This document shows positions 5,926 through 53,276 of a stretch of 53,276 bases of DNA, in pieces. Position numbers and translations under genes: made by a program. The notes under the pieces were generated by a model. The model saw nothing but the letters and a program-made list of their open reading frames with translations. It was not told where the DNA came from and ran no database searches. Origin of the DNA: Minisyncoccota bacterium (lineage in GTDB: Bacteria > Patescibacteriota > Minisyncoccia > Phycocordibacterales > UBA9973); assembly GCA_036405895.1 (NCBI GenBank), contig DASWWS010000001.1, positions 310,468 through 363,743 of the forward strand, written 5' to 3'. The stretch's first letter is position 1. Every line of letters begins with the position of its first letter.

Positions 5926-5951
5926 AAAGAATGCATTCAGTATAGCACCCC

Positions 5952-6476
5952 CTATTGATTCACAAAGCGAATCGGCAATCGAGCGCCGCCGTTGGGCACC
6001 TGTGCTCCGGTATTTCGAGTACGGGTCACCAATACATATCCATTACCCGGTCGCGGAGGTACATTGAACTGTATAAATGCATTAAAGGCCCAGGTGTCGC
6101 GTGTTGCGCTCACCGGCACTACAGCGGCAGGAGAAAGCGGCAATCCTTGGGCGTCCACTATCGTAACAGTGAAAGTGTCCGGTGCTACAAAAATAGTATT
6201 GCAGGTTGTAATAGTACCGGCGACAGCCACACCGGTTGAGGTGATTTTCACCTTCTCAAGCGGTTTTGGTGCAGTCATCAGCAGCTTTCCGCAGTTGTTA
6301 AATGACGGAGCAAGAGCGTTCTTGTCTCCTTTGTAGGTGGCAACATCAGGCACTGTTATCGGCTTAATGCCGCTGCCTGTGCCAAAGAGCTTTCCCAAAA
6401 GTGCAAGCACGAGAATAAGGACGATAATAATTTCCAGTGCACTCCAGCCTCCTCCCGATGATCCGCCGTCAGCCAT
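5952..6476 (-). CDS. Membrane-anchored Ig-like (Gmad2-like) domain protein
   Basis: Gly-rich N-terminus followed by a TM helix (LEIIIVLILVLALLGKLF). The beta-rich C-terminal part (VAVAGTITTCNTIFVAPDTFTVTIVDAQG...WAFNAFIQFNVP...GYVLV) resembles Gmad2-type Ig-like domains. The fold call is an inference. Confidence 0.5.
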   Translation of the reverse strand: MADGGSSGGGWSALEIIIVLILVLALLGKLFGTGSGIKPITVPDVATYKGDKNALAPSFNNCGKLLMTAPKPLEKVKITSTGVAVAGTITTCNTIFVAPDTFTVTIVDAQGLPLSPAAVVPVSATRDTWAFNAFIQFNVPPRPGNGYVLVTRTRNTGAQVPNGGARLPIRFVNQ

Positions 6477-24391: not shown

Positions 24392-24420
24392 AAAAAGCCG
24401 TTATTACACGGCTTTTTTTT
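24392..24420 (-). terminator. Terminator hairpin enclosing the stop codon of the ParB-like gene
   Basis: aaaaagccgt ... acggcttttttt. Confidence 0.6.
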
Positions 24421-25585: not shown

Positions 25586-25684
25586 ATATAGGTGCGTTAG
25601 TTTTGCCCCGATTATAGCAACCCGGCCGTTTTCAATACATATTGCCAAAGCATAAATACGCGTTGTAATGCATTAAAAAAGCCC

Positions 25685-26893: not shown

Positions 26894-27144
26894 ACGTTCT
26901 TTTTTTGTTAAGTTTGTTTGGGAGGATGCTACCACAAAGAAAAAGACCTGTCCAAAAATGGAGCAGGTCTCGGAGTAGTCAAACTAAACAATGAAAAATT
27001 ATATAGTGGATGCTGAAGTGTAAAACAAGTCAGCAGTGGAAAGAACGGGAAGAACAAAGGGTGATGGGAGAAGTAGTAAACTATTTCTCCTAAAACCTGA
27101 GTGTAGTGCTTTGTAAACAAAGAACTACACTAGTAGTATATACC

Positions 27145-29933: not shown

Positions 29934-30140
29934 TTATTCCGGGGGCCTGTACGGATAGTCATTGCAAAAGTGGCAATACAGACGATAGAGATCAACGAAA
30001 ACAAATACCAAGAGCGGGGTCAGCATGGACGTCACTATCAGCTGGGATTCATACCGTAGCGGGATGAATGCATGAAGAGTGTATACAGCAAGGAACACTG
30101 TCCAAGGGGTCACCCATACAGGAACGCGGTTCTTTTTCAT
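29934..30140 (-). CDS. Small two-TM hypothetical membrane protein
   Basis: 68 aa with WTVFLAVYTLHAFIPL and MLTPLLVFVFVDLY. It ends at the bidirectional terminator. Confidence 0.45.
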   Translation of the reverse strand: MKKNRVPVWVTPWTVFLAVYTLHAFIPLRYESQLIVTSMLTPLLVFVFVDLYRLYCHFCNDYPYRPPE

Positions 30141-30260
30141 ATCATGAGAGTTATTTAGTACAGTATCTTTGAAATACCTGGCGCTGTCAAAGCTTTATCT
30201 TTATTGACTTTTATAAAAAATAAGGCAATATCAAGAAAAACTTCATTTAAATTACTGAAC

Positions 30261-30968
30261 ATGACCTTAGACAATATGACCAAAGAGCTTCTTGACGATA
30301 TGTATAAGGAGCACGATGTACTGATGAAGAGCATTCAACAAATTTTGTGGGATGATAATCAAAAGGATAAGCACCCACTTTATTACAACAGCACCACTCA
30401 TCATTTTCTGTACGAACATGCCTGGGAAATACTCTTCCCTGTCCCCCAAGAAGAATGGTTTACGAATCTGCAAAACCTCGGACGATACAATGCCGAACTG
30501 CCGTGGCCGCAGTATGCCACCTATCAATATTGTATGGATGTGATACTCCCGCCGGAAATTCCAGCAAGCTCGCTGTGTTTCGGATATGCAGTTCTCGAAG
30601 ACGGCTCGGTCAAAAAAACCTCTTTCTTCGCCTGGATGCAAATGGTTAAGTATCAAGAAATGCCGCAAGGTATTGTCATGGACCCTCTCGCAAAGATCCA
30701 TTCTATTCCTGTGAAATATTACATAGGGGCTGAAATTGAGAGAGTGGACATCGAGCAATTCATTCTTAAGCGCGCGCCAGGCCATCCGCTTGAAAGCTAC
30801 GTGGAGCGCCGAAGCAAAAAAGAGCATGAAGAAAGATTGCACAACTCATACATGGAGTCTTATTGGCTTCAAATGCAGTATGAGCCGCACTATCTGCCGC
30901 GCGCATTGCAAGAATTTGCAAAAAAGGAAGGGCTTCCTTTTCCCGAAGACCAAAGGAGCACTGTCTAA
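30261..30968 (+). CDS. Hypothetical protein (orphan)
   Basis: 235 aa from ATG at 30261. The track start at 30204 is the TTG of a TTGACT -35 box. No motif recognised. Confidence 0.55.
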   Translation: MTLDNMTKELLDDMYKEHDVLMKSIQQILWDDNQKDKHPLYYNSTTHHFLYEHAWEILFPVPQEEWFTNLQNLGRYNAELPWPQYATYQYCMDVILPPEIPASSLCFGYAVLEDGSVKKTSFFAWMQMVKYQEMPQGIVMDPLAKIHSIPVKYYIGAEIERVDIEQFILKRAPGHPLESYVERRSKKEHEERLHNSYMESYWLQMQYEPHYLPRALQEFAKKEGLPFPEDQRSTV

Positions 30969-30975
30969 CATTCTG

Positions 30976-31001
30976 AACACCCGACTACTCGGGTGTTTTT
31001 T
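30976..31001 (+). terminator. Intrinsic terminator
   Basis: aacacccga ctac tcgggtgtt followed by tttt. Confidence 0.75.
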
Positions 31002-31015
31002 AATTCTTCCTTATA

Positions 31016-31044
31016 TTGACTTTTATAGATTTATGTGCTATTAT
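31016..31044 (+). promoter_or_regulatory. Sigma-70-type promoter with an extended -10
   Basis: TTGACT (31016-31021), a 17-nt spacer ending in TGc, then TATTAT (31039-31044). The 15-mer tattgacttttata is repeated at 30202-30215. Confidence 0.55.
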
Positions 31045-31069
31045 TAAGACTACTAAAGCCCTTTGCAAC

Positions 31070-31255
31070 ATGAAAGAAATAGAAATAACTATCGCACACA
31101 GCATACAAACTGTCGCATCAGTAATCCATTTTAGCGAAAAAGGATTCACCGATTTAGCTCGCGACCTGTCCAATGCCAATCTGAAACGTTTCGGCGCAGA
31201 AGTATTGAGCATTGAGATGTTGCCTGATGTTGTTCTTGTCGGACAAGAAAACTAA
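31070..31255 (+). CDS. Small hypothetical protein (61 aa)
   Basis: ATG at 31070 (MKEIEITIAH...) lies downstream of the promoter. The track start at 31016 is the -35 TTG. Confidence 0.4.
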   Translation: MKEIEITIAHSIQTVASVIHFSEKGFTDLARDLSNANLKRFGAEVLSIEMLPDVVLVGQEN

Positions 31256-31355
31256 AAGTGTACTTACTAAGGCTTCCCTATTATTTAGAGGAAGTCTTTT
31301 TTATCTGTGACCCTTTGTAGTGAGTTTTGGAATAGCTTATTATATAGAAATAGAA

Positions 31356-31895
31356 TTAGTTACTAAAAATTTTCTTTAAAGTGTAATCACTATAACCTGC
31401 ACCGAGTGTTTCAATAACTTCAAACCCATGTTTTCTAAAAAATCTTATTCTGTCTGATAACGGCTCACCCATTCTACTCTCTTGTAAGTTACCCACAATG
31501 TATTTCACATTATTTTCTCTAGCGATTTCATCGACAATTTTCATTAATTGTCCACCTATTCCCCGTCTACGATATTTCTCACTAACGCGAATATCCATAA
31601 TATCTAAGACAAGAAATGTATTATTTTGATAACTAGCTGAAGAAATCCAAATTGAAAGATTGTTATTAAATTTATCTGAAATAATTATATCCCTGTAGCC
31701 CAAATAAGTATCGACAGAAATGTCAAAAAGAGGCATCTTCTTAAAAAAATAATTGTCATCTTCTTGAGTGCATCGGAAATGAATATTAGAAAGGTATACA
31801 TTTGCTTCCATTGTTATTTTTCTGGAGAAAATATTAAAATACTTACTCTGAAATGACATAGGGTATCGTTTTTTTATAAAGATATCTTCTAACAT
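31356..31895 (-). CDS. GNAT-family N-acetyltransferase
   Basis: Acetyl-CoA motif A: VSEKYRRRGIGGQLMKIVDEIAREN. C-terminal FFRKHGFEV. AT-rich. Confidence 0.7.
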   Translation of the reverse strand: MLEDIFIKKRYPMSFQSKYFNIFSRKITMEANVYLSNIHFRCTQEDDNYFFKKMPLFDISVDTYLGYRDIIISDKFNNNLSIWISSASYQNNTFLVLDIMDIRVSEKYRRRGIGGQLMKIVDEIARENNVKYIVGNLQESRMGEPLSDRIRFFRKHGFEVIETLGAGYSDYTLKKIFSN

Positions 31896-31901
31896 ACATT
31901 A

Positions 31902-32687
31902 TTAAAAACGATCTGACTGAGAATATTTTTGAGCAAAAAATTTACCCTTATCAGTCAAAGATATAGTTTTACCATTACTTATTTTTATTAAGTTATTTGT
32001 ATCAGCAAAAACTAAAACGTCTTTATCAATCTCAAAATCATAGTTTCTAGAATAAGAAAGTGACATTGCTGATTCTACTCTTATTTTTCCTTCATGAATA
32101 TATATTGAATCTAAAATCTGAGTAAATTTACTAAAAATAGAACTGCTGATAAAATTTTTAAATTCTTCTTCCCATAAAATCTCAGGATTCTCATTTCCTG
32201 CTTTTTTATTCTGTTTAGCCTTTTCTGTTTTTTCTTTTATTAAGTTTGTTTGCTGCTTAATTAACTTTTCCTCTTCCTTTACTTTTTTTGTAGTCTCCTG
32301 TATCTCAATTACTTTTAATGCGATTTGATTTTTAAGGCTCTTTCTATAAAACTCTCTCGTAATATATGGAGAGATCCAAAAAAGTATTAAAGTTGATATA
32401 AAAGGAAAAATCCAAAAATGAAGCCAGTAGCTTACCTCATTAAGCTTTAAGAATAGTTCGTTAGATAAATACTCTATTCTCAGCAATCCAAATTTTTCAA
32501 ACACCTTTTCCTGATCAACGAAAAAAGCGGCGTATATTATTTTCCAGTTAATAACACACCAAGAAATTAAAAAGTATCCATAAAACGGAGAAGTTATTCT
32601 ATCTTTAAGTGCCATGTCGGCTGATACTACAATCTCATTAGTACCACCAAAAAAGTCTTTTAAGGTATCTGCGAATTTTGAAAACAT
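31902..32687 (-). CDS. Hypothetical membrane protein with a Lys/Glu coiled-coil and a C-terminal globular domain
   Basis: Two TM helices (FYGYFLISWCVINWKIIYAAFFV, WLHFWIFPFISTLILFWISPYI). K/E-rich helix (IQETTKKVKEEEKLIKQQTNLIKEKTEKAKQNKK). There is a 6-nt gap to the GNAT gene. Very AT-rich. Confidence 0.6.
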   Translation of the reverse strand: MFSKFADTLKDFFGGTNEIVVSADMALKDRITSPFYGYFLISWCVINWKIIYAAFFVDQEKVFEKFGLLRIEYLSNELFLKLNEVSYWLHFWIFPFISTLILFWISPYITREFYRKSLKNQIALKVIEIQETTKKVKEEEKLIKQQTNLIKEKTEKAKQNKKAGNENPEILWEEEFKNFISSSIFSKFTQILDSIYIHEGKIRVESAMSLSYSRNYDFEIDKDVLVFADTNNLIKISNGKTISLTDKGKFFAQKYSQSDRF

Positions 32688-32745
32688 GATACTTTTAGTT
32701 TATGTCAATTTTTTATAAAAGGCTATGTTTTTAGGGAATTTAGAG

Positions 32746-32751
32746 TAGAAT
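32746..32751 (+). promoter_or_regulatory. -10 box (TAGAAT) placed 6 nt upstream of the ATG of the 89-aa gene; leaderless-type start
   Basis: Sequence reads tagaat tctatt ATG. Confidence 0.4.
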
Positions 32752-32757
32752 TCTATT

Positions 32758-33027
32758 ATGGTATATCTAGTGACTTATGATTTAAATAAGCTCGGTAAAG
32801 ATTATACAAACCTTTACGCCGCCCTAAAGCGCTATGACTACATTAAAGACGTAGGCCTTGATTCGGTGTGGTTTGTCTCAACTACATGGACTGCTGCCCA
32901 GATTTATGAACATTTACGCCATTATATAGATGTGAATGATAGATTGGTTATAACTAAAATGAATAAAGGTGAACATCAAGGTTGGATGCACAAAGATATA
33001 TGGATATGGATAAATAGTAGAATTTAA
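32758..33027 (+). CDS. Small protein with a Cas2/VapD-like ferredoxin-fold pattern (predicted)
   Basis: 89 aa. VYLVTYDL (b1, terminal Asp), NLYAALKRY (a1), DSVWFV (b2/3), AAQIYEHLRHYI (a2), DRLVITKM (b4). The next gene starts 2 nt after its stop. Confidence 0.55.
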   Translation: MVYLVTYDLNKLGKDYTNLYAALKRYDYIKDVGLDSVWFVSTTWTAAQIYEHLRHYIDVNDRLVITKMNKGEHQGWMHKDIWIWINSRI

Positions 33028-33029
33028 TT

Positions 33030-33968
33030 ATGAAGAAAGATTTTCCTGAATACTATCCATTAACAAAATTGCAAAAAGAAAAACTATGGGATAGTGCTAT
33101 TTTTGTTTTTGACGCTAGTCTACTCTTAGACCTTTATTGCTATTCAGAAAATACTCGTAATGATTTTTTAGATATTTTAGAAAAAATGAGCTCTCAAATC
33201 TGGCTACCCCATCAATTTGCTTATGAGTATCAAAAGAACCGGTTAAAAATAATTCAACAACAAAAAAGAGCTTATGCAGATATTCGACAAAAGTTACAAT
33301 CTAATTTTGAATTTACATTAAAAAATATCAAAGATAGACACCCTTTTTTAAATATAGATAATATCATTAAAAAAATTAAGGCGGGTATTGATGATGCAAT
33401 TAAGGAAATAAACGACGCCGAAAAAAAACATCCTAACTGGTCTTCAAACGACACAGTGAGACGTCGACTTGATATAATTTTTAAAGATAAAATTGGAGAA
33501 CCTTGTAAGGATATAGAAGAGATGGAGCGACAAGGAGCTAAACGTAATTCTAGAGAAGTTCCACCAGGATTTGAGGACCAGAAAAAAGACCGTAATAAAT
33601 ATGGCGATTGGTTTGGATGGCATCAAATTATGGAGATGGCAGAAAAAAATAAGAAGTCTATAGTCCTTGTTACTAGTGAAAAAAAGAGAGATTGGTGGCT
33701 TAAAATTGAAGATGAAATAATTGAACCTCTCCCAGAATTACGGAAAGAAATTTCTATAAGGGGTGCACAATTTCATATGTATGACATGGAGACTTTTTTA
33801 CAGGCAGCTAAGGCAAAAAAATCTACTTTGAAAGAGATTCAGGAAATAAATAAGACTGTAAAAAATCTTGGTACTAGTGATACTGAAACAGATTCACAAT
33901 TAAATGATCATGCCATTACGCAAATGGGAATAGGGTCTATTGAAGCCGGTGAACAAACAGAAACATAA
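33030..33968 (+). CDS. PIN-like domain (DUF4935-type) predicted nuclease
   Basis: FVFDASLLLDLYCYS, IWLPHQFAYEYQKNR, VPPGFEDQKKDRNKYGDWFGWHQIMEMA and IVLVTSEKKRDWW match the PIN-like signature blocks as I recall them. Confidence 0.65.
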   Translation: MKKDFPEYYPLTKLQKEKLWDSAIFVFDASLLLDLYCYSENTRNDFLDILEKMSSQIWLPHQFAYEYQKNRLKIIQQQKRAYADIRQKLQSNFEFTLKNIKDRHPFLNIDNIIKKIKAGIDDAIKEINDAEKKHPNWSSNDTVRRRLDIIFKDKIGEPCKDIEEMERQGAKRNSREVPPGFEDQKKDRNKYGDWFGWHQIMEMAEKNKKSIVLVTSEKKRDWWLKIEDEIIEPLPELRKEISIRGAQFHMYDMETFLQAAKAKKSTLKEIQEINKTVKNLGTSDTETDSQLNDHAITQMGIGSIEAGEQTET

Positions 33969-34055
33969 AAACGATCCTTGTGGAGTGTTTTTATATATGG
34001 CCTCATGGGGATGTTAACCCTATACTCACTCTTTGGAAACCCAAAACATGATGGA

Positions 34056-34160
34056 ATCGGTCACGAGTTACTAAGTGTTCTCCTGTGCAAGGCACAGTGC
34101 GAGCACTAAGTACTCTCGACCCCGGCTCGGTTGCCTGTCGGCATACCTGCGCCTTTCGCT
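34056..34160 (-). repeat. GC-rich conserved element, copy A (downstream of tRNA-Glu, same orientation as the tRNA)
   Basis: 34103-34160 is the reverse complement of 35084-35141 with 2 mismatches in 58. 34056-34078 is the exact reverse complement of 35161-35183. The segments between differ but each can form a small hairpin. Confidence 0.85.
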
Positions 34161-34192
34161 TCCCCGCCGCGAGCAAAGCAGTTTGCTCGCTT

Positions 34193-34244
34193 GGGGTCAC
34201 ATGTAAAAAACGCCTCTTGCGAAGCGTTTTTTACATGTGACCCC
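34193..34244 (-). terminator. Perfect 21-bp hairpin with a 10-nt loop that incorporates the tRNA-Glu 3' acceptor strand
   Basis: ggggtcacatgtaaaaaacgc / gcgttttttacatgtgacccc. The inner aaaaaacgc...gcgtttttt part is terminator-like in both directions. Confidence 0.7.
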
Positions 34245-34309
34245 ACGGGGAATCGAACCCCGATTAACGGCTTGAAAAGCCGGCGTCCTAACCGTTAGAC
34301 GATGGGGCC
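34238..34309 (-). tRNA. tRNA-Glu (anticodon UUC)
   Basis: The reverse complement GGCCCCATCGTCTAACGGTTAGGACGCCGGCTTTTCAAGCCGTTAATCGGGGTTCGATTCCCCGTGGGGTCA folds as a cloverleaf. It has a 7-bp acceptor stem and a GGGG-TTCGATT-CCCC T arm. The anticodon loop is TTTTCAA. CCA is not encoded. Confidence 0.85.
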
Positions 34310-41412: not shown

Positions 41413-41703
41413 CTATTGATTCGCCTGAAATTCCTGAAGCTGGTTCAAGAGTTCTCCATAATCCGTTCCGGAATTACTCTCTTCACCTGAGCCGCCAAGC
41501 AGGCCATAGGCGCCCTTGAGCTGCTCTAAGTACGGCTGTATGAGGTATAGAGACATAATCCCAAGTCCGATAATTACCAACCAATAGAGCCACTTCATCA
41601 CAGCTGCGGTTTTTTGCGCACGGCGCATTGCAGTGAGAAGTTTTGTTGTTTCATCGAGCTTGCTTTCTATTGCTTTAAGGCGTGCATCAAGTAGCGGATC
41701 CAT
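41413..41703 (-). CDS. Small single-TM hypothetical protein
   Basis: 96 aa with the TM helix WLYWLVIIGLGIMSLYLI. Confidence 0.5.
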   Translation of the reverse strand: MDPLLDARLKAIESKLDETTKLLTAMRRAQKTAAVMKWLYWLVIIGLGIMSLYLIQPYLEQLKGAYGLLGGSGEESNSGTDYGELLNQLQEFQANQ

Positions 41704-41729
41704 ACCGAGTATTGTATCATAGATACATA

Positions 41730-42230
41730 ATGACCAAACGATTCTCCCGCGGTTTTACCCTTATCGAACTGTTGGTTGTCATCGCCGTGATTGGCATTCT
41801 CGCCTCAGTGGTGATGGCTTCCCTCAACAGTGCTCGCATAAAAGCGCGCGACGCGCGAAAGATCGCGGACTTCAAAAATATCAGTACGGCACTGTACATG
41901 TACCAAGACACCTATGGCCGCATGCCGCCATCATATTTTACCTACGGCATCAACAACGAAGTTGAGGGTGGCGGTAACTATGAGCTTTCCATGCAGGATT
42001 TGGTAAACGCAGGGTTTCTTTCCGAAATTCCAAAAAGCCCGGGCGGGCCAAAATACCATTACTATAACTATGAAGGCTCTCCTACTATCGGCGCGATCCT
42101 TGTCACTCATTTGGAGGGCGGGCAAAACACTACCACTGGCATTCCTCCTTCCTGCAGGCCATTTACTGAAAACTGGTGCAGTCAAACACATGCGAGCAAA
42201 GCATACTGCCTGTGCCATCCGACCTATTAA
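41730..42230 (+). CDS. Type IV pilin-like protein (prepilin N-terminal methylation motif)
   Basis: MTKRFSRGFTLIELLVVIAVIGILASVVMASLNSARIKARDA is a class III signal peptide with G/F cleavage and Glu+5. The track ORF starts at 41682. Confidence 0.85.
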   Translation: MTKRFSRGFTLIELLVVIAVIGILASVVMASLNSARIKARDARKIADFKNISTALYMYQDTYGRMPPSYFTYGINNEVEGGGNYELSMQDLVNAGFLSEIPKSPGGPKYHYYNYEGSPTIGAILVTHLEGGQNTTTGIPPSCRPFTENWCSQTHASKAYCLCHPTY

Positions 42231-42642: not shown

Positions 42643-43026
42643 CTAGTCTTTTTTGAAGCCAAGCCCCCGCAGTATTGCCTCCCACCAGTGCCCAATACGG
42701 CTTTGCTCTTTTACAGGAACCGGCTCTGGTACAACAGGTGCGGTGATAATAATCATCTCCTCTCCCGGCTTTACCACATTGAATTTCGCACGCAGCGACT
42801 GCTGCTGCCCGTCCGGCGTCTCCAAATAGCTGTTTTGCTCCATCAAGGCAAGCTCTTTTTCTTCAAGCTTTGCCTGCTTTGTTTTCAATTCGCGCGTTCG
42901 CCCCTTAATGGCAAAATACTTCTCTGCAAGGCCAATCACGGAGGTAAGGAGCATGAAAAAAGCAATCAGGGCGACCAGGGCTCCGAGGAGGCGCTTGTAT
43001 GAAATTTTTTGCTTTGAATGCGGCAT
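42643..43026 (-). CDS. Septum formation initiator (FtsB/DivIC-like)
   Basis: N-terminal TM helix, a coiled coil (RELKTKQAKLEEKELALMEQNSYLETP), then LRAKFNVVKPGEEMIII. Confidence 0.65.
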   Translation of the reverse strand: MPHSKQKISYKRLLGALVALIAFFMLLTSVIGLAEKYFAIKGRTRELKTKQAKLEEKELALMEQNSYLETPDGQQQSLRAKFNVVKPGEEMIIITAPVVPEPVPVKEQSRIGHWWEAILRGLGFKKD

Positions 43027-45031: not shown

Positions 45032-45589
45032 TTATTTGCAGACAAAATCTTCGTTTGCCCAGTTTGTTCCCCCACTTTGCTTGGCAACATATTCGCCTGT
45101 GCTTTCTTTTATATATCCCAAGTGAAGCCCGACCGAACCCCATACCGGAGTTATATAACAGTGGTATTTGTAAGCGTAGGTTCCGGACGGGGTCCAGTCC
45201 CCCGTCATGTTATTCACCGGGTCAACCGGCACGCTTGGCATAAAGCCAGCGGTGACAAGAAATTGCATAAAACCACCCCCTTGCGAACTGTAGTCCCAAG
45301 CCCCGGCATCATTTTCCGCATACGTACCTGTAGCCGGCCCACATGTTGTACCGCCGTAGTTGATTGGAAGACAGCCGTAGGTGTCATAGTACAAAAAGAG
45401 TGCCTTATAAATTTGGTCAATATCGCTTGCACGGCGGGCATCACGCGCTTTTACGCGCGCGCTATTTAATGACGCCATAATTACAGAAGCCAAAATACCG
45501 ATCACGGCGATGACAACCAATAGTTCGATAAGGGTAAAACCTTTTTGTGGGTTCTTTCTGTACATATATATAGTGTGGATGTTTTTCAT
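45032..45589 (-). CDS. Type IV pilin-like protein, last gene of the giant-protein operon
   Basis: KGFTLIELLVVIAVIGILASVIMASLNSARVKARDA. The start is ATG at 45589 or 45565. It begins 3-28 nt after the stop of the 1593-aa gene. Confidence 0.85.
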   Translation of the reverse strand: MKNIHTIYMYRKNPQKGFTLIELLVVIAVIGILASVIMASLNSARVKARDARRASDIDQIYKALFLYYDTYGCLPINYGGTTCGPATGTYAENDAGAWDYSSQGGGFMQFLVTAGFMPSVPVDPVNNMTGDWTPSGTYAYKYHCYITPVWGSVGLHLGYIKESTGEYVAKQSGGTNWANEDFVCK

Positions 45590-45592
45590 ATA

Positions 45593-48500
45593 TTACTCAA
45601 TGGCTGAAGGTTCGGGAGAGGGTTCTTCAGAAGGACCGTCCTCCTGTTGTTCTTGCGGTTCAGGCTCCGGAGTTGGCTCTGGTTCTGGAGTTGGTTCGGG
45701 TTGTGGTTCTGGTTCTGGAGCGGGTTCTTCAGAAGGACCGTCCTCCTCGCCCGGAGTTGGGTCGGGGTCAGGTGCAGGATCAGGGAGCGGGTCTGGAGCG
45801 GGATCCGGCTCCTCTGCAGGAGGAGTGTCTCCACCTCCATCTTCCGAGGAGCCTCCGTTATAATTACTGCCGCTATTGTTCATAATGCCTTCGAGCTCGC
45901 TCTTGGTGAGACAAATTTCTCCGTCATCATCTTCCACACACAATTCGCGCGTGCGCACCTTGCCGATATTCGCTATCCCTTCTGCAATACCTTCCAAGAA
46001 TTCCGCCACCTTCGCAGCCATACTTCCATCGTCTTCAAACTCTGGGAGTGCTTGTACTTTGATATCGAGCTCTTGAATAGCTTTGACAGCATAGGGGACA
46101 ATAGAGTCGCGACTGAACAACAGATAGCCGTCGCTGCCGTTGATTGTCACAACATTGGGCAACACATCATCAACATCCTGTGCGATAAATCCAGGGATGT
46201 CTTTTTCTCCTGTCAGTGCATCAAAGAGTGCGGGCTTCAGTTCGCGCAAGAGCTGCATTGCATCGATATTCTCGTCAAAATACCTGATGTTTTCTTTCAG
46301 TCGCTTGTCAGAACTACATGATCCTATATAGCCGCTGCTGTGACACATCGCAGTACCTCCTGGATATGCAGGCATACTAGCTGCTATAAGCTGGCCAGCA
46401 GATGCATAAATATTTCCAGCAACAGTGAGTTTTTCTGTGAGCGTTGCAGTGCCAATACCTACACTCCCAGCATCTCCGATACGCAAGCGCTCAGCGCCCG
46501 CAGAGTTACTAAAAACAAGATCGGGTGTGCCACTATTAGAGGCTGCCCCCATATAAAACACACCGCCGCCACTATTTGCCGCACCGAATGCATATTTATT
46601 GTTCGGGTTTGAAACAATTCGGTTGTCGGCAGAGCCGTCTCCCACCTGAAACGTGAACACGCTGGAGAGGAACGTGCTTGTTGCAACGCCTATTTGGCCA
46701 GCAGTGCTTATAGTCATTCGCGGAGTTCCTATAGCATTTGTGAAAAATGCTATAGGCGACCCGGTGCCTCCGTAAATGTTAAGTGCATTTGACCCTCCAT
46801 AAAATCCCGGCGAATTTTGGTTGTTGGTCCAAATATAGTTGTCCGCAGTTCCTGACTTTATTCTCATCTGCGCGTACGCACTTGCACTGACTCCGTCAGT
46901 GTTCTCAATGGTAAAAATATTTGATGTACCCACCACATGCAATTTAGCACTTGGTCCTGCCGTTCCAATACCGACGTTGCCGGCCCCAACAGTAACATTT
47001 CCTCCAAGGGGGTTGAGTTGGAGCGTTTGCCCAGTGGATGTACTAAATACCTGTATCCACCCCGTTCCGGCCGTAGAATTTTTACCCATTGTCATCGAGT
47101 TAAGATACACCCCAGCATTAGCGTCGTTGTTCGGTGTATCAGTAGCAATTATTCGACCTCCGGATGAATAAAGATATGTAGCGTTTGCCTGTCCAATCAC
47201 AGTGAGTGCGTCAGTAGGTGCCGAAGTTCCTATTCCAACCCTGCCCGTACTTGTTATCGCCAAGCGAGTGTCACCGCCATTGTATAACCCTAAAATACCG
47301 CTTCCAGCACTTGCTTCCAGCAACCCGACATAGGCTGCATTGCTTCCATTGGAATATTCTGTTGCTATATCACCTCCGACTCCTCCTGTTAGATTGATGT
47401 ATTGAGACCCCGTACCAATTACACTCAATTTTCTTAATGGACTCGTGGTCCCAATACCGACATTGCCGGATGAATTAATAAACATTCGACTTGCATAGCT
47501 GGTAGTATTGCTGAATATATCTAAGCCTCCATTAGAATCAACGCCGATACCAAATGATTTACCTGCATGGCTGCCCGTTAAAATAAGTGTAGGGAATGTT
47601 GCGCTAAGTTCAAGTTTTGGAATAAATCCCCCTAGCGCAGTGGGGGCAGTAGTTCCGATACCGACATTTCCCACAGCGTCTATTCTCATGCGCTCTCCTT
47701 GGCTTACTCCCGATTTATGAGTATTAAAGGTGAGATAGTCATCTGTTGTGGTACTGATAAATCCGATTGATCCATAAAGATTAGTAACATCGCTCGCTAC
47801 ACCTTGCGCTCTACCAATATAGCGAGAAGTGCTGTCGAGAGTATTCCCGACCTTAATGTTTCCCACTACTTCTAATTTTGATGCAGGTGTGGCACTGCCA
47901 ATACCGACATTTCCAGCCCCTACTATGAGGCCGTAATTATTGGTAGCTCCGGTAGCACTAAACCATCCACCATAATTTGTCGTTGAAGCTCCGGTAACAT
48001 CTGAAAATACGCCGTACGAATTGCCCGATACAGCCCCAGTCTTTTGAAGATAAATACCAACACTTCCTGAAACATTACTACTGTCAACAACTTCGAACTT
48101 TCCGGTAGGTGTAATGGTACCAATACCCACATTTCCATTTGCAAGGATTCGCATTTTTTCGGTCAGGCCGGTTGAGGTGCTGCGAGTCACCAGTGCAAGA
48201 TCCATGTTTGTATTGTCTCCTTGTGCAACACCAAGAATACTTGCCATATAGTTCTCTGCAGTGTTGCCGAAGATAATACCCATCTGATGATTGGCAGTGT
48301 TTACACTGTTTGTAATATTGATACCTCGCGCAAATCCAAGACCAGTATTTGTTGTCGTATCTGTAACATCAAGCCGTGCAAAGGGCGCTGTGGTACCGAT
48401 ACCGACATTGCCACCAGACGTTATTCTCATTTTTTCTGAAAATCCGGTTGCATCTTTTGCGGTTGCAATACCGAACTTCAAGCCTTCATTTGAAAAAATA

Positions 48501-50374
48501 GAGGAAGGGTCTCCTACAGTTGCAGAGGAGTATACAGTTACAAAGTTTCCTCCATTGTTTCCTTCTAGTACAAGCGATGAACCAGTGCTTCCTCCATTAT
48601 AAAGGTTGAGCGTTTTTCCAATACCAGAAGGCCCCACCGTCCCCACACCCACATTCCCGCTCGCATCAATCGAAAGATGATTTGCTGTTCCTCCTCCTGA
48701 ACTCATACCGAATACTCCAGAGGTGTCTGAACCGATGGAACCTGAATATGCGGAGTTGCGTTTGTAGAAGGTGCGGGAGTAGCCGGTTGAAGTGTTTGAG
48801 ACTGTTGTGTAGATACCGGTTGCGGAACTGTTGCGGACTTCGAACGAACCATCTGGTGAAGTGGTGCCCATACCAATTGCGCCGTCGCCGCGGATATAGA
48901 AGCGGGAGTTTGAACCGTTGTCGAGGAAGTTTGCGAGGGTGGTGGAAGAAGTGCCGTCACTTCCGTATACAAGAAGACCGGTGGTTGTTGTGGCAGTGGT
49001 GCCGACTTGGAGCTTGGCGTTGGGGTTCGCTGTTTCAATACCAACATTGCCTCCGGTGAAGAGGGCCGAGTATGTTGCGTTGGAGAAGGTGGTGGTGCCG
49101 GTGAAGGTGTTGGCAGAGGTGCCAGACTGCGTGTATGCGCCGGAGGTCACGATGCCGGTGGAGGCAGTGATTGCGCCTGCACCTGATACTTGAAAGGCAT
49201 CCCCAGATCCAACCGTGAAGAGTGCTGCGGGAGTGGCGTCGCCAATACCAATGTTGCCGTCTGCAAGAATGCGCATGCGCTCAGTGTTGTTGGTCTCAAA
49301 CGAAAGCGCATTGCTGTCATTCGTGCCAAGCGTTGCAAGTGCGCTGAAGCTGTTTCCGTTTTGTGCGAAGTATGTGGCAGAGCCAAAGGTGGTGTCGAGA
49401 GAGATGATACCGGTGCCGGAGTCATAGTCGATGCCGGTGCCTTCAGAGAGTGCGCTTCGGGCACGGCTGTCGAGGAAGTACAGGTTTGTTCCTTCAGGCA
49501 GGTCTGTTGTGGTTGCGTCTGAACTTAAGAGCCCAGCTGCGGAACTTCGCACAACCCCCGCCCCCAATGTAGTAACAGCGATGTTTTGATCAAACTCAAA
49601 CCTGTCCTCTGTGGAGTTCCAGGTGAAGAGCGCATTGGGTTGCAGTCCTCGATCAAAGATCAGCGTGATGTCTTCAGCATCATTGGAGAGGTTGTCTGAG
49701 TTGAAGGTGAAGTTTCCTGAGATGGTGCCGGAGATGTCAGAGTTTCCGGCTGAGATAGAGTTTGCAGTGATGGTGTCGACATAGATGTTGCGAAGGAGGA
49801 AGGAGGGTGAACCGATGTCGAAGGTTTGGTTTTCTGAGAGGAGAAGAGATGATGCCAAAGTTGCATTGAAGATGAGGGTGTCGGTGGAGTCGTTTCCGAT
49901 GGTGACGTCTCCATTGAAGAAGGCGTCGCTATTCACTGTCAGTGTGCCATCGATGACTGAGTTGCCTCCGATTGTGAGGGAGTCAGTGCTGTCGTCGAAG
50001 GTGAGACCGGTGCTTTCTGAGAGAACACCATCTGTACCGATGAATGGAATTGAAGAAGGCGTGAAGGAAGAGAAGGTTGGAGCGTTGGAGAAAGAGGCAC
50101 TGGTGAGGGTGATGTCTGAGAGGGTGTCGGTCCAGCTGGTTTGATTGCCATCGGTGGTGAGGAGCTTGCCTGCATTGCCTGTTTGTTCTGAGAGGATCTG
50201 GACGGAACAGTTGGTGTCTCCTGGAGCACAAGAGGGATCAAGTGTTTCTCCGGGAGCGTATTTGGTGGAGGGAGGGACGGCTAAAGAAATAGAGAAAGAA
50301 TAGAGAAATACGAAAAGAACACACAGCAACGTGCGCTTATGCTTTTGCCAGATTGTCGAGGGATTGATCATCAT
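45593..50374 (-). CDS. Giant (1593 aa) secreted tail-fibre-like repeat protein with a C-terminal S74-type intramolecular chaperone module
   Basis: N-terminal signal/anchor (LLCVLFVFLYSFSISLAVP). About 13 modules carrying ERMRI...GNVGIGT(T/A)xP. SSDKRLKENI...IVPYAVKAIQELDIKVQAL is S74-like. A conserved extension and a Pro/Glu/Asp tail follow. Confidence 0.85.
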   Translation of the reverse strand: MMINPSTIWQKHKRTLLCVLFVFLYSFSISLAVPPSTKYAPGETLDPSCAPGDTNCSVQILSEQTGNAGKLLTTDGNQTSWTDTLSDITLTSASFSNAPTFSSFTPSSIPFIGTDGVLSESTGLTFDDSTDSLTIGGNSVIDGTLTVNSDAFFNGDVTIGNDSTDTLIFNATLASSLLLSENQTFDIGSPSFLLRNIYVDTITANSISAGNSDISGTISGNFTFNSDNLSNDAEDITLIFDRGLQPNALFTWNSTEDRFEFDQNIAVTTLGAGVVRSSAAGLLSSDATTTDLPEGTNLYFLDSRARSALSEGTGIDYDSGTGIISLDTTFGSATYFAQNGNSFSALATLGTNDSNALSFETNNTERMRILADGNIGIGDATPAALFTVGSGDAFQVSGAGAITASTGIVTSGAYTQSGTSANTFTGTTTFSNATYSALFTGGNVGIETANPNAKLQVGTTATTTTGLLVYGSDGTSSTTLANFLDNGSNSRFYIRGDGAIGMGTTSPDGSFEVRNSSATGIYTTVSNTSTGYSRTFYKRNSAYSGSIGSDTSGVFGMSSGGGTANHLSIDASGNVGVGTVGPSGIGKTLNLYNGGSTGSSLVLEGNNGGNFVTVYSSATVGDPSSIFSNEGLKFGIATAKDATGFSEKMRITSGGNVGIGTTAPFARLDVTDTTTNTGLGFARGINITNSVNTANHQMGIIFGNTAENYMASILGVAQGDNTNMDLALVTRSTSTGLTEKMRILANGNVGIGTITPTGKFEVVDSSNVSGSVGIYLQKTGAVSGNSYGVFSDVTGASTTNYGGWFSATGATNNYGLIVGAGNVGIGSATPASKLEVVGNIKVGNTLDSTSRYIGRAQGVASDVTNLYGSIGFISTTTDDYLTFNTHKSGVSQGERMRIDAVGNVGIGTTAPTALGGFIPKLELSATFPTLILTGSHAGKSFGIGVDSNGGLDIFSNTTSYASRMFINSSGNVGIGTTSPLRKLSVIGTGSQYINLTGGVGGDIATEYSNGSNAAYVGLLEASAGSGILGLYNGGDTRLAITSTGRVGIGTSAPTDALTVIGQANATYLYSSGGRIIATDTPNNDANAGVYLNSMTMGKNSTAGTGWIQVFSTSTGQTLQLNPLGGNVTVGAGNVGIGTAGPSAKLHVVGTSNIFTIENTDGVSASAYAQMRIKSGTADNYIWTNNQNSPGFYGGSNALNIYGGTGSPIAFFTNAIGTPRMTISTAGQIGVATSTFLSSVFTFQVGDGSADNRIVSNPNNKYAFGAANSGGGVFYMGAASNSGTPDLVFSNSAGAERLRIGDAGSVGIGTATLTEKLTVAGNIYASAGQLIAASMPAYPGGTAMCHSSGYIGSCSSDKRLKENIRYFDENIDAMQLLRELKPALFDALTGEKDIPGFIAQDVDDVLPNVVTINGSDGYLLFSRDSIVPYAVKAIQELDIKVQALPEFEDDGSMAAKVAEFLEGIAEGIANIGKVRTRELCVEDDDGEICLTKSELEGIMNNSGSNYNGGSSEDGGGDTPPAEEPDPAPDPLPDPAPDPDPTPGEEDGPSEEPAPEPEPQPEPTPEPEPTPEPEPQEQQEDGPSEEPSPEPSAIE
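45596..45829 (-). repeat. Low-complexity Pro/Glu/Asp-coding tandem repeat (C-terminal tail of the 1593-aa protein)
   Basis: PAEEPDPAPDPLPDPAPDPDPTPGEEDGPSEEPAPEPEPQPEPTPEPEPTPEPEPQEQQEDGPSEEPSPEP. It contains two copies of ggttcttcagaaggaccgtcctcct (45621-45645 and 45723-45747). Confidence 0.9.
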
Positions 50375-53276
50375 GGCGTTGCTTCTGTTACCGGTTCAGA
50401 AGCTGGCGCTTCTGGTTCTGGAGTTGGTTCAGGCTCCGGTTGAGGTTCTGGAGTTGGGTCTGGTGTTGGTTCCGGTTCGGGTGTTGGTTCTTCAGAAGGA
50501 CCGTCCTCCTGTGGAGTTGGTTCCGGTTCTGGTTCAGGGTCTGGTTGTGGCTCTGGAGTTGGATCGGGGGTGTTGGTGGTGTTGTTGTATGAGCCGTTTG
50601 CACTATCAAGAAGCTCCTGCAGCTGGCTTTCGGTCACACATGTCTGCCCCACACAAAGCTTGTCGGTATTCACCCGCCCAATATTCGCTATCCCCTCTGC
50701 AATGCCTTCCAAGAATGCTGCGACTTTTGCCGCCATCGAGCCATCGTCTTCGAATTCTGGAAGGGCTTGGACTTTGATATCGAGATCTTTCACTCCCGCT
50801 ACAAGCAACGGTATTATGTCTGTATAGCTCACCCCCATGTAGCCCTGCGCATTTTCTGTTACCGCCTCTGGGAGCACGCGCCTTACATCTTGCGCTATCA
50901 AGAACGAGCGACTCACGGATAGGGGATCCGTTAAATATCTCGATGTTCCGGCTCGCAGAGAACTTATCTTACCTAAAGCATCAGTAAACGGCTGGAATGC
51001 CTCCATATCTTTCAGCCGTTCATCCGAAGAGGCGGTCCATGAAGTGCCTCCAGCCGCCAAATACACGCCACCCGATCCGTTTGCTCGAATATTTAATTGA
51101 GTGCTTGGTCCGGTGACACCTCCCATGAACATGTCAGCATTTGCCCCACTTCGCTTCCATGATTGCAAGTTTCCTGCTGCATCGGCTTCTATGGTTAAGC
51201 GAACGTCCGGACTGGTAGTCCCAATACCGACGTTGCCGTTTTCTAAGATAGTCACCCCTTCATTCGCATACTGCCCGGTGTCTGCAGAAATATGAATCGG
51301 GGCTCCTGTAATATTACTGATAGCAAATGCACCATCGACAGAGTTTGTCAGAAGTTGCCCCACTCCTCCGTTGAGCCCAATATTCGCATTACCTTGAAGG
51401 TTGGTGAACTGGAGATACGCATTGTCCGTACCCCCTGTTGAGCGGATGCGAACAGCAAGCGATGCGGCGTGCTCAATGTTGAGCTTGTATCCTGAAGTGG
51501 TTGCAGTACCAATACCCACTTCTCCGTTATTGGCAAGGAATATGCCGTTTGTCACCCCAGAAGTACCAAAGAGCATTTCACTTCCCAATACTCTCAAAGA
51601 GGTGTACTGAGCAGTGTTTCGGTTATAAGAAAGAATATCCGATGATGTTCCCCCCGTTCCCCCGTTCACCGGATTGAATTCAAGGCCGTTTGCCCCTCCA
51701 TTTGATACGACTAATTTTGCGAGAGGACTCGCTGTTCCAATACCAACATACCCACTCCCTGCCAAAATAGAAAGTCGCTCCACTTCATGGGCTGTGTTTT
51801 CCGCAGTTCCTCCGAGAGTAAAGAATCCCATTCGAGCATTTAACACTCCTGGTGTTGACGCAGTGTTAATGCTTTTTATTGCATTACTGTAGTAGAGCGT
51901 ACTTCCGGAGACAAATCCTCCAATATTGAGAGTACCAGTCACATCTCCTGCTACATTACCCTCATTTGTAATAAGTGCTGCTCCAGCAACATGCAATTTG
52001 GTATAAGGATTTGTTGTGCCAATACCGACTCTACCGTCTCCTCGAACCATAAACAACGGATTATTATTTCCCGTAACAACGTTAAGCGCGTAGTGAGTAC
52101 TGTCGAGTGCTGCTTGAATCCCCAACCCGTTCCCGCTTGCATGCGGGTTGTAAATATATTGGCCGTAGGCAGCAGCATTCGTTTCAACATAGAGACGTAT
52201 TGTTGATGGATTCGTTGTCCCGATACCGACGTTCCCATTCGTCTCAATACGCATGCGCTCTGCAATTGATCCTGCAGTCGGCTTTGTAAAGAATTTCAAG
52301 AGACCAGAATCAGCATTAACACTATCTGTCGTTGCTGAAATGATATTCGTCAATGTACCACCATTATGAAATGTGATTTGCCCTATAGTGCCATTGGCAA
52401 CACCTGTTGTTGTTGCAAGCTCCAAAGATCCGCGATTAGTGCTGGATCCTTGTATGGTAAGAGTAGTAGAGACGTTGCCATTTATGTTCGGAGTTGTTGT
52501 CCCAATACCCACATTTCCCTCACTGGTAACACGCATGCGCTCAAGAGGGTCTGAATTTGCTCGGGTAAGAATTGCAAAATAACCGGCTACATTGTTTAGA
52601 GTTGAATTTTCTTTTCTTCCCACTATTGTGGCAAAGTTAGTATACGAGGTACTGACTGCATTGTATTTGCCACCCAATCCCAGTGAGCCTCCCAAGTCTG
52701 CCGCATACGCATCAGAAGTAAAAATGTTTACGTTGGGCCTTCCACCATCGGTCACTAGCTTGCTCGCACCCACTACCTCTAAACTACTATTTGGTGTTGC
52801 TGTCCCAATACCAACGTTGCCTCCATTTGCCTGCAAGATCAAAGAAGATACAGCATTGTTAAAGTATGAATAGATATACGATGTTCCAGTAACCGTATCG
52901 TACCGAGTGGATAAGAAATTTTCATTGTCCTTTCCAATATCCAAACGAACGGTTCCTGTCGTACCGATGATTCGTGTATCGAGAATAGGCCGCGTTGCAG
53001 AGCCAATCATCAACTGATTAGCTGCAGTATTAGTTGCACTGCCGCCAAGTGCAATCGAGTTTGAGAATCCGCCGGTTGAAGTGGACTTCCCGATGAGGAT
53101 GGAGAAGTCGTCAGGGTCCGCAGTGTTGTCTACACTATCTCCACCCCCGGCTCCTTGTCCAATGAAGATTGAATTGCTGGCAGATACCGCGGTGTTTCCT
53201 GCATTATAGCCAATGAAGTTTGAGTAAGAGGCATCGGTTGCAAAGAGGCCAGCATAGGTCCCAATAAAGTTTGAAT
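50371..53276 (-). CDS. Second giant tail-fibre-like repeat protein (paralogue); N-terminus lies beyond the window edge
   Basis: The track gives 880 aa from TTG at 53013, but the frame is open with no stop up to base 53276 (my translation: SNFIGTYAGLFATDASYSNFIGYNAGNTAVSASNSIFIGQGAGG...). There are seven GNVGIGT-type modules and SSDERLKDM... is S74-like. It carries the same conserved extension and Pro/Glu tail as the 1593-aa gene. Its TGA overlaps the downstream ATG (ATGA at 50371-50374). Confidence 0.85.
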   Translation of the reverse strand, partial: SNFIGTYAGLFATDASYSNFIGYNAGNTAVSASNSIFIGQGAGGGDSVDNTADPDDFSILIGKSTSTGGFSNSIALGGSATNTAANQLMIGSATRPILDTRIIGTTGTVRLDIGKDNENFLSTRYDTVTGTSYIYSYFNNAVSSLILQANGGNVGIGTATPNSSLEVVGASKLVTDGGRPNVNIFTSDAYAADLGGSLGLGGKYNAVSTSYTNFATIVGRKENSTLNNVAGYFAILTRANSDPLERMRVTSEGNVGIGTTTPNINGNVSTTLTIQGSSTNRGSLELATTTGVANGTIGQITFHNGGTLTNIISATTDSVNADSGLLKFFTKPTAGSIAERMRIETNGNVGIGTTNPSTIRLYVETNAAAYGQYIYNPHASGNGLGIQAALDSTHYALNVVTGNNNPLFMVRGDGRVGIGTTNPYTKLHVAGAALITNEGNVAGDVTGTLNIGGFVSGSTLYYSNAIKSINTASTPGVLNARMGFFTLGGTAENTAHEVERLSILAGSGYVGIGTASPLAKLVVSNGGANGLEFNPVNGGTGGTSSDILSYNRNTAQYTSLRVLGSEMLFGTSGVTNGIFLANNGEVGIGTATTSGYKLNIEHAASLAVRIRSTGGTDNAYLQFTNLQGNANIGLNGGVGQLLTNSVDGAFAISNITGAPIHISADTGQYANEGVTILENGNVGIGTTSPDVRLTIEADAAGNLQSWKRSGANADMFMGGVTGPSTQLNIRANGSGGVYLAAGGTSWTASSDERLKDMEAFQPFTDALGKISSLRAGTSRYLTDPLSVSRSFLIAQDVRRVLPEAVTENAQGYMGVSYTDIIPLLVAGVKDLDIKVQALPEFEDDGSMAAKVAAFLEGIAEGIANIGRVNTDKLCVGQTCVTESQLQELLDSANGSYNNTTNTPDPTPEPQPDPEPEPEPTPQEDGPSEEPTPEPEPTPDPTPEPQPEPEPTPEPEAPASEPVTEATP
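50374..50571 (-). repeat. Low-complexity Pro/Glu-coding tandem repeat (C-terminal tail of the upstream giant protein)
   Basis: TPDPTPEPQPDPEPEPEPTPQEDGPSEEPTPEPEPTPDPTPEPQPEPEPTPEPE. It contains ggttcttcagaaggaccgtcctcct at 50486-50510. Confidence 0.9.

Follow-up and report, generated by a model that had tools for sequence, protein, structure and literature searches.

The closest described relatives of the proteins studied here are prey-recognition fibres, the MAT (mosaic adhesive trimer) superfamily of Bdellovibrio bacteriovorus, which comprises 21 paralogues of about 1000 amino acids (aa) (Caulton et al., 2024; PMC10769870). MATs consist of a signal peptide, a conserved, beta-rich N-terminal domain of about 130 aa and an intertwined trimeric beta-helix or prism, and 13 of the 21 end in an S74 chaperone/protease with the motif SDxxxK; self-cleavage was shown at S782 for Bd3182, a member resembling the P22 tailspike. 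The proteins were localised on the surface of the predator, glycan binding was shown for one member, and MAT-like proteins were listed in Omnitrophica, Micavibrio and Uabimicrobium, a list on which Patescibacteria do not appear (PMC10769870). In Saccharibacteria, type IV pili serve host attachment (PMC11623550 and related work). Here we analysed two adjoining giant genes, the open reading frames (ORFs) ORF-A and ORF-B, and the type IV prepilin gene behind them, in a stretch of 53,276 nt (the window) from contig DASWWS010000001.1 of a Minisyncoccota bacterium. To our knowledge, little is understood beyond type IV pili of how ultrasmall Patescibacteria find and hold their hosts.

We consider it likely that ORF-A and ORF-B are chromosomal genes of Paceibacteria type and members of a large family of exported fibres, which occurs in multiple copies and is homologous to phage tail fibres and to MATs, and that their products act as host adhesins. 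The original prediction, which was made from the letters of the window, had regarded a fibre system of this kind as not yet described. This view has to be given up, because exported cellular trimeric fibre adhesins with an S74 end are the known MAT superfamily and ORF-A and ORF-B match crystal structures of its members.

Gene Layout

The two giants overlap on the minus strand and are followed by the prepilin gene; re-reading of the frames and of the ATGA overlap gave the same layout as first described (Table 1). Read from 53274 towards 50371, the frame of ORF-A has 967 codons without a stop and is still open at the window edge; the database protein P0121 is identical to it. As judged from the sequence, the ATGA overlap probably couples the translation of ORF-B to that of ORF-A. 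Tandem overlapping fibre pairs occur likewise in the related loci L055 and L084.

Table 1. Coordinates of the fibre genes, their modules and the two prepilin genes within the window.
Feature	Position	Strand	Remarks
ORF-A, giant fibre protein, C-terminal part	50371..53276	minus	at least 967 aa; frame open to the window and contig end
ORF-A residues 1-118, SNFIG/YadA-head-like repeat module ending NQLMIGSATRPI	52921..53274	minus	read from sequence
ORF-A repeat region	51175..52842	minus	units of ~70-100 aa, each closing with (E)RMRIxxxGNVGIGTxxP
ORF-A S74 intramolecular chaperone/autoprotease domain	50770..51027	minus	PF13884, residues 750-806; predicted catalytic Ser750 and Lys755 (SDERLK)
ORF-A Pro/Glu-rich tail	50374-50592	minus	counterpart of the ORF-B tail
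Overlap of ORF-A stop (TGA) and first ATG of ORF-B as ATGA	50371-50374	minus	read from sequence
ORF-B, complete fibre protein of 1593 aa	45593..50374	minus	stop at 45593-45595
ORF-B residues 1-32, Sec-type signal peptide or N-terminal anchor (KHKRT + LLCVLFVFLYSFSISLA)	50279..50374	minus	sequence and AlphaFold2 model
ORF-B residues 33-82, family-specific leader VPPxxKYxPGxTLDPxCAPGDTNCxV...QTGNxGKxLTTDGxxxxW	50129..50278	minus	invariant columns in alignment A5
ORF-B repeat region	46415..49282	minus	10 GNVGIGT-type motifs
ORF-B S74 intramolecular chaperone/autoprotease domain	46055..46312	minus	PF13884; predicted catalytic Ser1355 and Lys1360 (SDKRLK)
ORF-B extension after S74 (IKVQALPEFEDDGSMAAKVAEFLEGIAEGIANIG...LCVxxxxxxxCLT)	45860..46054	minus	near-identical in ORF-A
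ORF-B Pro/Glu-rich low-complexity C-terminal tail	45596..45859	minus	28 Pro and 19 Glu in the last 75 aa
Type IV prepilin gene (pilin 1), reads KGFTLIELLVVIAVIGILA	45032..45589	minus	likely start 45565 (177 aa)
Second type IV prepilin gene (pilin 2)	41730..42230	plus	divergent; between tRNA-Phe and tRNA-Arg

Fibre Repeats and Homology

The tail-fibre hallmarks named at the outset (SNFIG repeats, GNVGIGT modules and an S74 end) stand far above chance, both by motif counts and by Pfam and PHROG profile searches. The motif G-x-[VI]-G-[IV]-[GN] occurs seven times in ORF-A and ten times in ORF-B, against means of 0.04 and 0.09 copies in 2000 shuffles. Searches with phmmer against the PDB matched ORF-B to the MAT structures 8OND (Bd2133; E = 3.5e-6), 8OJN (Bd3182; 1e-5), 8OL4 (Bd2439; 4e-4) and 8OML (Bd1334), and ORF-A to 8OND (4.5e-8), followed by 8OML and 8OJN; the matches to Bd3182 comprise 8OJN, 8ONB and 8ONC. 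The repeat region of ORF-A aligns to the fibre structures of Bd2133 and Bd1334, while in ORF-B residues 1036-1154 align to the beta-helix of Bd3182 (8OJN) and residues 629-684 to Bd2133. Besides MAT fibres, the only sequence matches in the PDB were low-complexity matches to the Pro/Glu-rich tail. Among PHROG tail-fibre families the best E values were 8e-43 for ORF-B and 1e-27 for ORF-A, with PHROG 9942 at 8e-43 and PHROG 18345 at 4e-34. NCBIfam held no model matching either giant.

Homologue searches matched about 2,200 proteins (211 with ORF-B, 2023 with ORF-A), many of them from contigs between 100 kb and 1 Mb long. Their source names include Paceibacterota, Pacebacteria, Patescibacteria, Moranbacteria, WWE3 and Microgenomates, and relatives are already named 'tail fiber domain-containing protein' at NCBI. 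The module formed by residues 1-118 of ORF-A recurs with 70% identity in many Patescibacteria fibres, e.g., P0123. The assignment of the window to a small-genome lineage was sound: it belongs to the Patescibacteria, and the best homologue of ORF-B, the N-terminally truncated P0001, is deposited as 'tail fiber domain-containing protein, partial [Candidatus Paceibacterota bacterium]'.

Four family members of 1366-2115 aa (P0095, P0101, P0061, P0091) contain MerR-type helix-turn-helix (HTH) domains or carry HTH names. Two of them also end in S74, and one lies on a Microgenomates contig of 1.13 Mb; the combination of HTH and S74 recalls the eukaryotic myelin regulatory factor (MyRF), in which a DNA-binding domain is linked to an S74 domain that cleaves itself. 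The name trimeric autotransporter was considered for the giants and rejected: Pfam revealed no YadA-type barrel anchor, and the C-terminus consists of S74 and the Pro/Glu-rich tail.

S74 Domain and C-terminal Extension

Peptidase_S74 (PF13884) was recognised in ORF-B with E = 3.4e-8 (34.1 bits, cutoff 22) and in ORF-A with E = 3e-4 and 21.5 bits, just under the cutoff; the two proteins are homologous across the domain. Serine and lysine of the S-D-x-x-x-K motif are invariant in the alignments A2 and A4. An AlphaFold2 (AF2) model of ORF-B residues 1280-1519 reached predicted local distance difference test (pLDDT) values of 76-92 in the S74 part. Foldseek placed the ICA domain of MyRF (7DC3) first with this model (E = 1.5e-4, probability 1.0), followed by a weak match to the endosialidase chaperone 3GW6. 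The S74/ICA fold of the C-terminal domain is thereby confirmed at the level of a predicted structure.

Patescibacteria fibres add about 115 aa beyond the S74 domain, in the order helix, Cys-x(n)-Cys hairpin and Pro/Glu-rich tail. A metagenome scan for the subclade-specific 'ALPEFEDDGSMA' module returned one distant locus only.

Signal Peptide and Leader

The N-terminus of ORF-B has the features of a Sec-type signal: a positively charged n-region, a hydrophobic core of 16 residues and a predicted cleavage site SLA/VPP. Residues 13-31 form a helix in the AF2 model (pLDDT ~95), and basic n-region, hydrophobic core and small-x-Ala site are conserved in the homologues. Downstream of this site follows a leader with the family consensus A-(V/T)-P-P-x-x-x-Y-x-P-G-x-T-L-D-P-x-C-A-P-G-D-T-N-C-x-V ... 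Q-T-G-N-x-G-K-x-L-T-T-D-G-x-x-x-x-W. When the first 110 residues of ORF-B were compared with 1.84 billion representative proteins, 1004 clusters were found at E<=1e-3 and 139 at E<=1e-10. One of the leader matches, P0240, has its own signal peptide and then continues with sequence identical to ORF-B, and therefore another paralogue, or the protein of a close strain, would also be exported. The AF2 model of residues 1-125 contains just one hairpin of modest confidence beyond the signal helix and no globular domain.

Paralogues and Mosaicism

The protein P0001 begins with a block that is ~82-85% identical to ORF-B residues 187-382 and contains a second block of 87% identity, within an overall alignment to ORF-B of only ~34%. 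With ORF-A, ORF-B and P0001 at least three paralogues are present, in which blocks of 82-87% identity are embedded in alignments of ~30-34%; the modules following S74 are near-identical between ORF-A and ORF-B. P0001 appears to be encoded on the contig that carries ORF-A and ORF-B. In the simplest reading, the window is one end of this contig, P0001 as a third paralogue lies at the other, and the assembly broke at both ends within repeated fibre sequence. Breaks within ORF-B are likewise seen in the Logan contigs on which the same pilin is encoded (L001, L002). Look-ups of the exact products of ORF-B, P0001 and P0240 returned no match.

Exchange is also seen between strains. The loci L084 and L110 represent the same locus in two strains and come from a single metagenome assembly (GCA_040384025.1; JAWVHG010014102 and JAWVHG010027592). 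Their flanks and first pilin are 91-100% identical. The fibre has a different central part in each (57% identity overall), and L110 has one pilin gene fewer; this exchange of the fibre centre is a cassette-like diversification.

Chromosomal Context and Distinction from Phage Genes

The genes of the window include mnmA, yceG, a sigma-70 factor gene, rseP, frr, mreB, priA, ybeY, ftsA and ftsZ, furthermore trxB, folD, gmk, tsaD and genes for a P-type ATPase, an L,D-transpeptidase and an aminoacyl-tRNA synthetase, as well as prsW, hsp20, a glutaredoxin gene and lepA. No phage genes were present among the annotated genes of the window, ~45 kb of which are housekeeping genes on the downstream side, so the first impression that nothing phage-like flanks the giants there was correct.

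Related loci were collected by scanning GTDB, with one genome per species. The C-terminal alignment A2 served as the query, as the full-length alignment of the family (A1) proved too divergent for this purpose. The scan yielded 79 loci, of which 68 carry the labels of Patescibacteria groups; a single genome often contributed several of them. After clustering of the neighbouring genes, gyrB recurred in 13 loci and an addB/uvrD-like helicase-nuclease gene in eight; rpsL, rpsG, fusA, rpmB and genes for M50 and M48 peptidases and a histidine kinase recurred as well, and no recurring phage family was found among the clustered neighbours. The fibres P0002, P0004 and P0014 lie amid pheT, secA, gyrB and similar genes. 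The commonest neighbour was a protein of ~1000 aa with a CarboxypepD_reg domain, which was present in 24 of the 79 loci and directly downstream of the fibre in 17 (e.g., L013:10970-14200); it is a better-conserved partner of the fibres than any pilin. Two near relatives of ORF-B, the fibres P0012 and P0033 (loci L107 and L108), reside in variable, defence-island-like regions rather than among housekeeping genes. These islands contain an AAA_13 ATPase, a ThiF/E2/BubE ubiquitin-like conjugation set, a serine recombinase and a DNA methyltransferase.

S74 proteins from genomes and from viral contigs were also compared directly. Among S74 ORFs with a complete 5' end, signal peptide and Cys leader were present in 47 of 75 genome-derived sequences and in none of seven viral ones. 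The median distance from the catalytic serine to the protein end was 214 residues in the genome-derived relatives and 99 on viral contigs; the Cys pair after S74 was found in 73 of 89 and 2 of 13, respectively, and the Pro-rich tail in 43 of 89 and 0 of 13. The scan of viral contigs produced generic S74 matches only, which cover approximately query residues 1-114 and stop at the S74 domain. By tblastn, 128 phage records were matched, all with less than 60% identity; the best of them, tail fibres of pelagiphages and cyanophages, reached 25-31%, and no deposited phage surpassed 31% identity, with alignments that covered 56% of the length at most.

These data bear on the possibility that the giants form the tail-fibre module of a prophage or phage remnant, i.e., that they are virion receptor-binding proteins whose structural genes lie beyond the contig end. 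Their homology to phage tail fibres is genuine, as the PHROG and tblastn matches demonstrate, and the contig ends at 53276, with the upstream side out of view. However, ORF-B begins with a signal peptide and a leader of the kind lacking in the viral ORFs, the viral relatives share the S74 domain alone and mostly end without the later extension, and neither the downstream housekeeping genes nor the neighbours in the 79 loci have a phage-like character. Both contig ends, moreover, break inside paralogous fibre genes, which points to assembly breaks at repeats and not to a phage junction. Because genome-derived and viral S74 ORFs differ in this way and the identity to phages is low, we regard a prophage origin as very unlikely and hardly credible. 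The original prediction that the giants are cellular, exported proteins and not parts of a virion is thus borne out by the signal peptide of ORF-B and by the housekeeping context, here and in the related loci.

The Neighbouring Pilin Genes

Pilin 1 was recognised by Pfam N_methyl (PF07963; E = 4.7e-10) and by TIGR02532 above its cutoff. It had been placed within 3 nt of the ORF-B stop, which holds if translation begins at the ATG at 45589 and yields a leader of 17 aa. The probable start is, however, the ATG at 45565, with the 9-aa leader MYRKNPQKG/FTLIEL and a gap of 27 nt, because this leader fits the 79%-identical orthologue P0381 and the usual leaders of 5-10 residues (more than 100 homologues). 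The second pilin gene reported ~3 kb away is real and lies on the plus strand (PF07963; E = 1.3e-8). Both window pilins have the class III signal, with a short basic leader, G/F-T-L-I-E, Glu at +5 and a hydrophobic helix. Pilin 2 shares 59% identity over its full length with the pilin directly after the fibre pair of L084. In the Logan contig L001, the automatic gene calls place a 95-aa gene on the opposite strand at 5848-6135 and miss pilin 2 (41682-42230 in the window); pilin counts from such calls are therefore underestimates. No pilB, pilC, pilD or pilM gene was detected in the window, where weak PilM_2 matches correspond to FtsA and MreB.

Arrangement of a fibre gene followed by a pilin gene was found in three related lineages of one subclade, which share a common C-terminal module: the window, L084/L110 and L111. 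L084, whose fibre P0122 is 43% identical to ORF-A, has an overlapping fibre pair, a gap of 4 nt and three pilins, the first of which is the orthologue of pilin 2 and not of pilin 1. In L110 the pilin is identical to that of L084. The contig of L111 starts with a fibre C-terminus of the 'EDDGSMA...LCVxxxC' type, followed after 51 nt by a 79% orthologue of pilin 1 and then by genes for FKBP and SIMPL, nusG and rplK; the same neighbourhood follows the fibre P0002 in L003, there without a pilin. Outside these lineages, a survey of +-10 kb around 87 fibre ORFs in the 79 GTDB loci (1.2 Mb; regular expression and hidden Markov model searches with the window pilins as positive controls) found no prepilin gene, nor did one adjoin the near relatives P0002, P0004, P0012, P0033 and P0014. 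The fibre-pilin synteny, which the original prediction had treated as a defining feature and whose absence in relatives it had named as a ground for refutation, is thus absent from ~92 fibre genes.

At 50-60% identity, 134 homologues of the globular domain of pilin 1 are spread across Paceibacteria, Minisyncoccia and Kaiserbacteria. Because of this spread we regard pilin 1 as a core pilus subunit and not as an adaptor specific for the fibres, and the initial picture of a pilin linked to the fibres as their partner gives way to that of a member of a broad Paceibacteria pilin group. Within this genome, co-transcription of fibres and pilin is nevertheless likely, because little sequence separates the pilin from the ORF-B stop, with no terminator detected there. 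The terminator scan was at chance level, as was the promoter scan (14 matches against 14.8 expected and 9 against 12.5 for promoters and terminators, respectively), and both are uninformative on this point. In the spacer between fibre stop and pilin start of L111 (L111:296-349) an imperfect 9-bp hairpin (TCGTAGATG...CGTCTACGA) is followed by an AT-rich ACTATATATAT stretch, which also directly precedes the probable pilin 1 start in the window (45566-45576) and may be a conserved promoter or leader element.

From this arrangement a dedicated apparatus for host contact could be envisaged, in which a single operon provides a type IV pilus as carrier, docking site or partner of the trimeric fibres. 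Such a function would agree with the gap of 3-27 nt, with promoter-like matches at chance level, with the recurrence of the adjacency in three lineages, among them L084/L110 with two fibres and two to three pilins, and with the finding that the gene behind the pilin differs (lepA in the window, FKBP in L111); a possible interplay with type IV pili was also raised for MATs (PMC10769870). Opposed to it are the missing prepilin genes around the great majority of the fibre genes examined, the different pilin paralogues next to the fibre in different lineages, the core character of pilin 1, the hairpin and AT-rich stretch in L111 and the lack of pilB, pilC and pilD in the window. On balance a dedicated apparatus seems rather doubtful to us.

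Proposed Function of the Fibres

We propose that ORF-A and ORF-B are transcribed together and that their translation is coupled through the ATGA overlap. Each protein would be exported by the Sec pathway through its N-terminal signal peptide, and the conserved Cys-containing leader (or an uncleaved anchor) would probably keep the fibre attached to the envelope. Trimerisation of the repeat region may be nucleated extracellularly by the C-terminal S74 chaperone, and autocleavage before Ser1355 (ORF-B) and Ser750 (ORF-A) would release the chaperone together with the Cys extension and the Pro/Glu-rich tail. The mature trimeric fibres would then serve as surface adhesins that bind molecules on the surface of the host cell, and block exchange among the three or more paralogues and between strains could diversify their specificity. 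The downstream pilin would be a type IV pilin of the common, widely conserved kind, which in this lineage is probably transcribed together with the fibre genes, and not a general partner of the fibres.

Several observations weigh against this proposal. The contig ends at 53276, and the N-terminus of ORF-A and whatever precedes it are out of view. ORF-B showed no recognisable counterpart of the beta-rich N-domain (~130 aa) by which Bdellovibrio MATs are defined, and anchoring may therefore differ from that of MATs. After cleavage of the signal peptide no membrane or wall anchor is evident, and the fibres could therefore be released and not displayed. Neither the extension behind S74 nor the Pro/Glu-rich tail has an explained role. 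Finally, the analysis demonstrates the homology, the domains and catalytic motifs, the signal peptide, the chromosomal context, the distribution and the mosaicism, while export, trimerisation, cleavage, anchoring and adhesion are inferred by analogy with S74 proteins and MATs, and the structure models are those of monomers.

Cellular fibres might also have a non-adhesive role, either as a structural surface layer or spike coat, or as tailspike-like glycan depolymerases that open the host envelope. S74 domains mature enzymatic tailspikes as well, such as the endosialidase with the chaperone 3GW6, the MAT Bd3182 resembles a tailspike, and the family is well represented in Patescibacteria genomes and occurs there in multiple copies. 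Yet Pfam, NCBIfam and PDB searches of the giants detected no catalytic domain, the repeat architecture is that of the fibre shafts of MAT adhesins, and strain-level cassette swapping suits recognition better. We consider a non-adhesive role improbable and retain the adhesin function as the preferred reading.

A more far-reaching version of the adhesin reading would see fibres and pilin of this Paceibacteria subclade as one co-expressed host-contact module, in which the pilus positions or carries the fibres, and the multi-copy, cassette-swapping family as the main determinant of host specificity in episymbionts of the candidate phyla radiation (CPR) and as a counterpart, on the side of the cell, to the receptor-binding proteins of phages, with its own mode of anchoring through the leader and a novel pro-domain behind S74. 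In this full form we think it unlikely.

For CPR bacteria the fibre family offers a concrete and testable candidate for determinants of host range. Two practical consequences concern genome analysis: the label 'tail fiber domain-containing protein' in CPR genomes should not be counted as a prophage signal, and fibre repeats are a systematic source of assembly breaks.

Other Features of the Window

Of the genes first named downstream of the pilin, lepA and the glutaredoxin gene were confirmed. The ftsB-like gene (42643-43026) encodes a transmembrane segment and a coiled coil and has a full-length match to DivIC below threshold (E = 0.033; 14.4 bits, cutoff 28.9), and its name is plausible but unproven. 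The region 30000-34300 is a low-GC island (GC 0.31-0.37, ~0.48 elsewhere) that ends beside a tRNA-Glu gene (34237-34309). It carries genes for a PIN_8 protein (33030-33968) and a GNAT acetyltransferase (31356-31895) as well as ORFs without a family match, and looks like an integrated foreign element. At 24404-26935 two adjoining genes of ~415 aa, one ParB-like with weak ParB_N and HTH_ParB matches and one with DUF7178, may be a mobile-element or partition-like pair.

Comparison with Known Systems

The literature searched contained no description of S74, tail-fibre or MAT proteins in Patescibacteria, and none of tail-fibre-like partner proteins for Saccharibacteria pili. With those pili the window shares the context of a Patescibacteria episymbiont and pilins with the canonical class III signal G/FTLIELL; here, however, the pilin is a mere neighbour of the fibres and is so in a narrow subclade. 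Trimeric autotransporter adhesins, a name given to P0002 and P0004 by the JGI (Joint Genome Institute), have YadA-head-like SNxIG repeats and the logic of a trimeric fibre in common with the giants, with no more than faint YadA_head matches in relatives. The window fibres, in contrast, have no C-terminal beta-barrel anchor, and an outer membrane is unlikely in this organism.

The ICA domain of MyRF (7DC3) is the best structural match and, like the predicted S74 domain, an auto-processing trimerisation device. MyRF is, however, a eukaryotic membrane-bound transcription factor, and the S74/ICA domain is all that the proteins have in common. Phage fibres and tailspikes (K1F endosialidase, 3GW6; T5 pb1, 4UW8; PHROG 9942 and 18345) share the S74 fold, the Ser-Lys motif and the fibre repeats, and chaperone-driven trimerisation followed by self-cleavage would be expected for both groups. 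They differ from the window fibres, which have a signal peptide and leader and no virion gene context, and on the viral contigs examined the protein typically ends ~100 aa after the catalytic serine, compared with 214-239 aa here.

The greatest agreement exists with the S74 subgroup of MATs, e.g., Bd3182. Both are chromosomal and ~1000 aa or longer, begin with an N-terminal signal peptide, are built of ERMRIxxxGNVGIGTxxPxxxLxV-type repeats, which in the window fibres align directly to the solved structures, and end in an S74 chaperone with SDxxxK; both occur as many paralogues with mosaic exchange, and we also count a life attached to other bacteria as shared. The differences begin with the host, a Patescibacteria lineage here and a proteobacterial predator in the case of Bdellovibrio. 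At the N-terminus, where MATs have their beta-rich domain of ~130 aa, a conserved Cys-containing leader of ~50 aa was recognised in ORF-B and its homologues; the window fibres carry ~115 residues past S74, and in one subclade the genes lie directly upstream of type IV pilin genes. New here is a MAT-like branch of Patescibacteria with its own leader, a post-S74 extension of ~115 aa and conserved chromosomal positions. If our reading is true, this fibre family would be, next to the MATs, a second, independent case in which a cell-attached lifestyle makes use of the phage receptor-binding toolkit.

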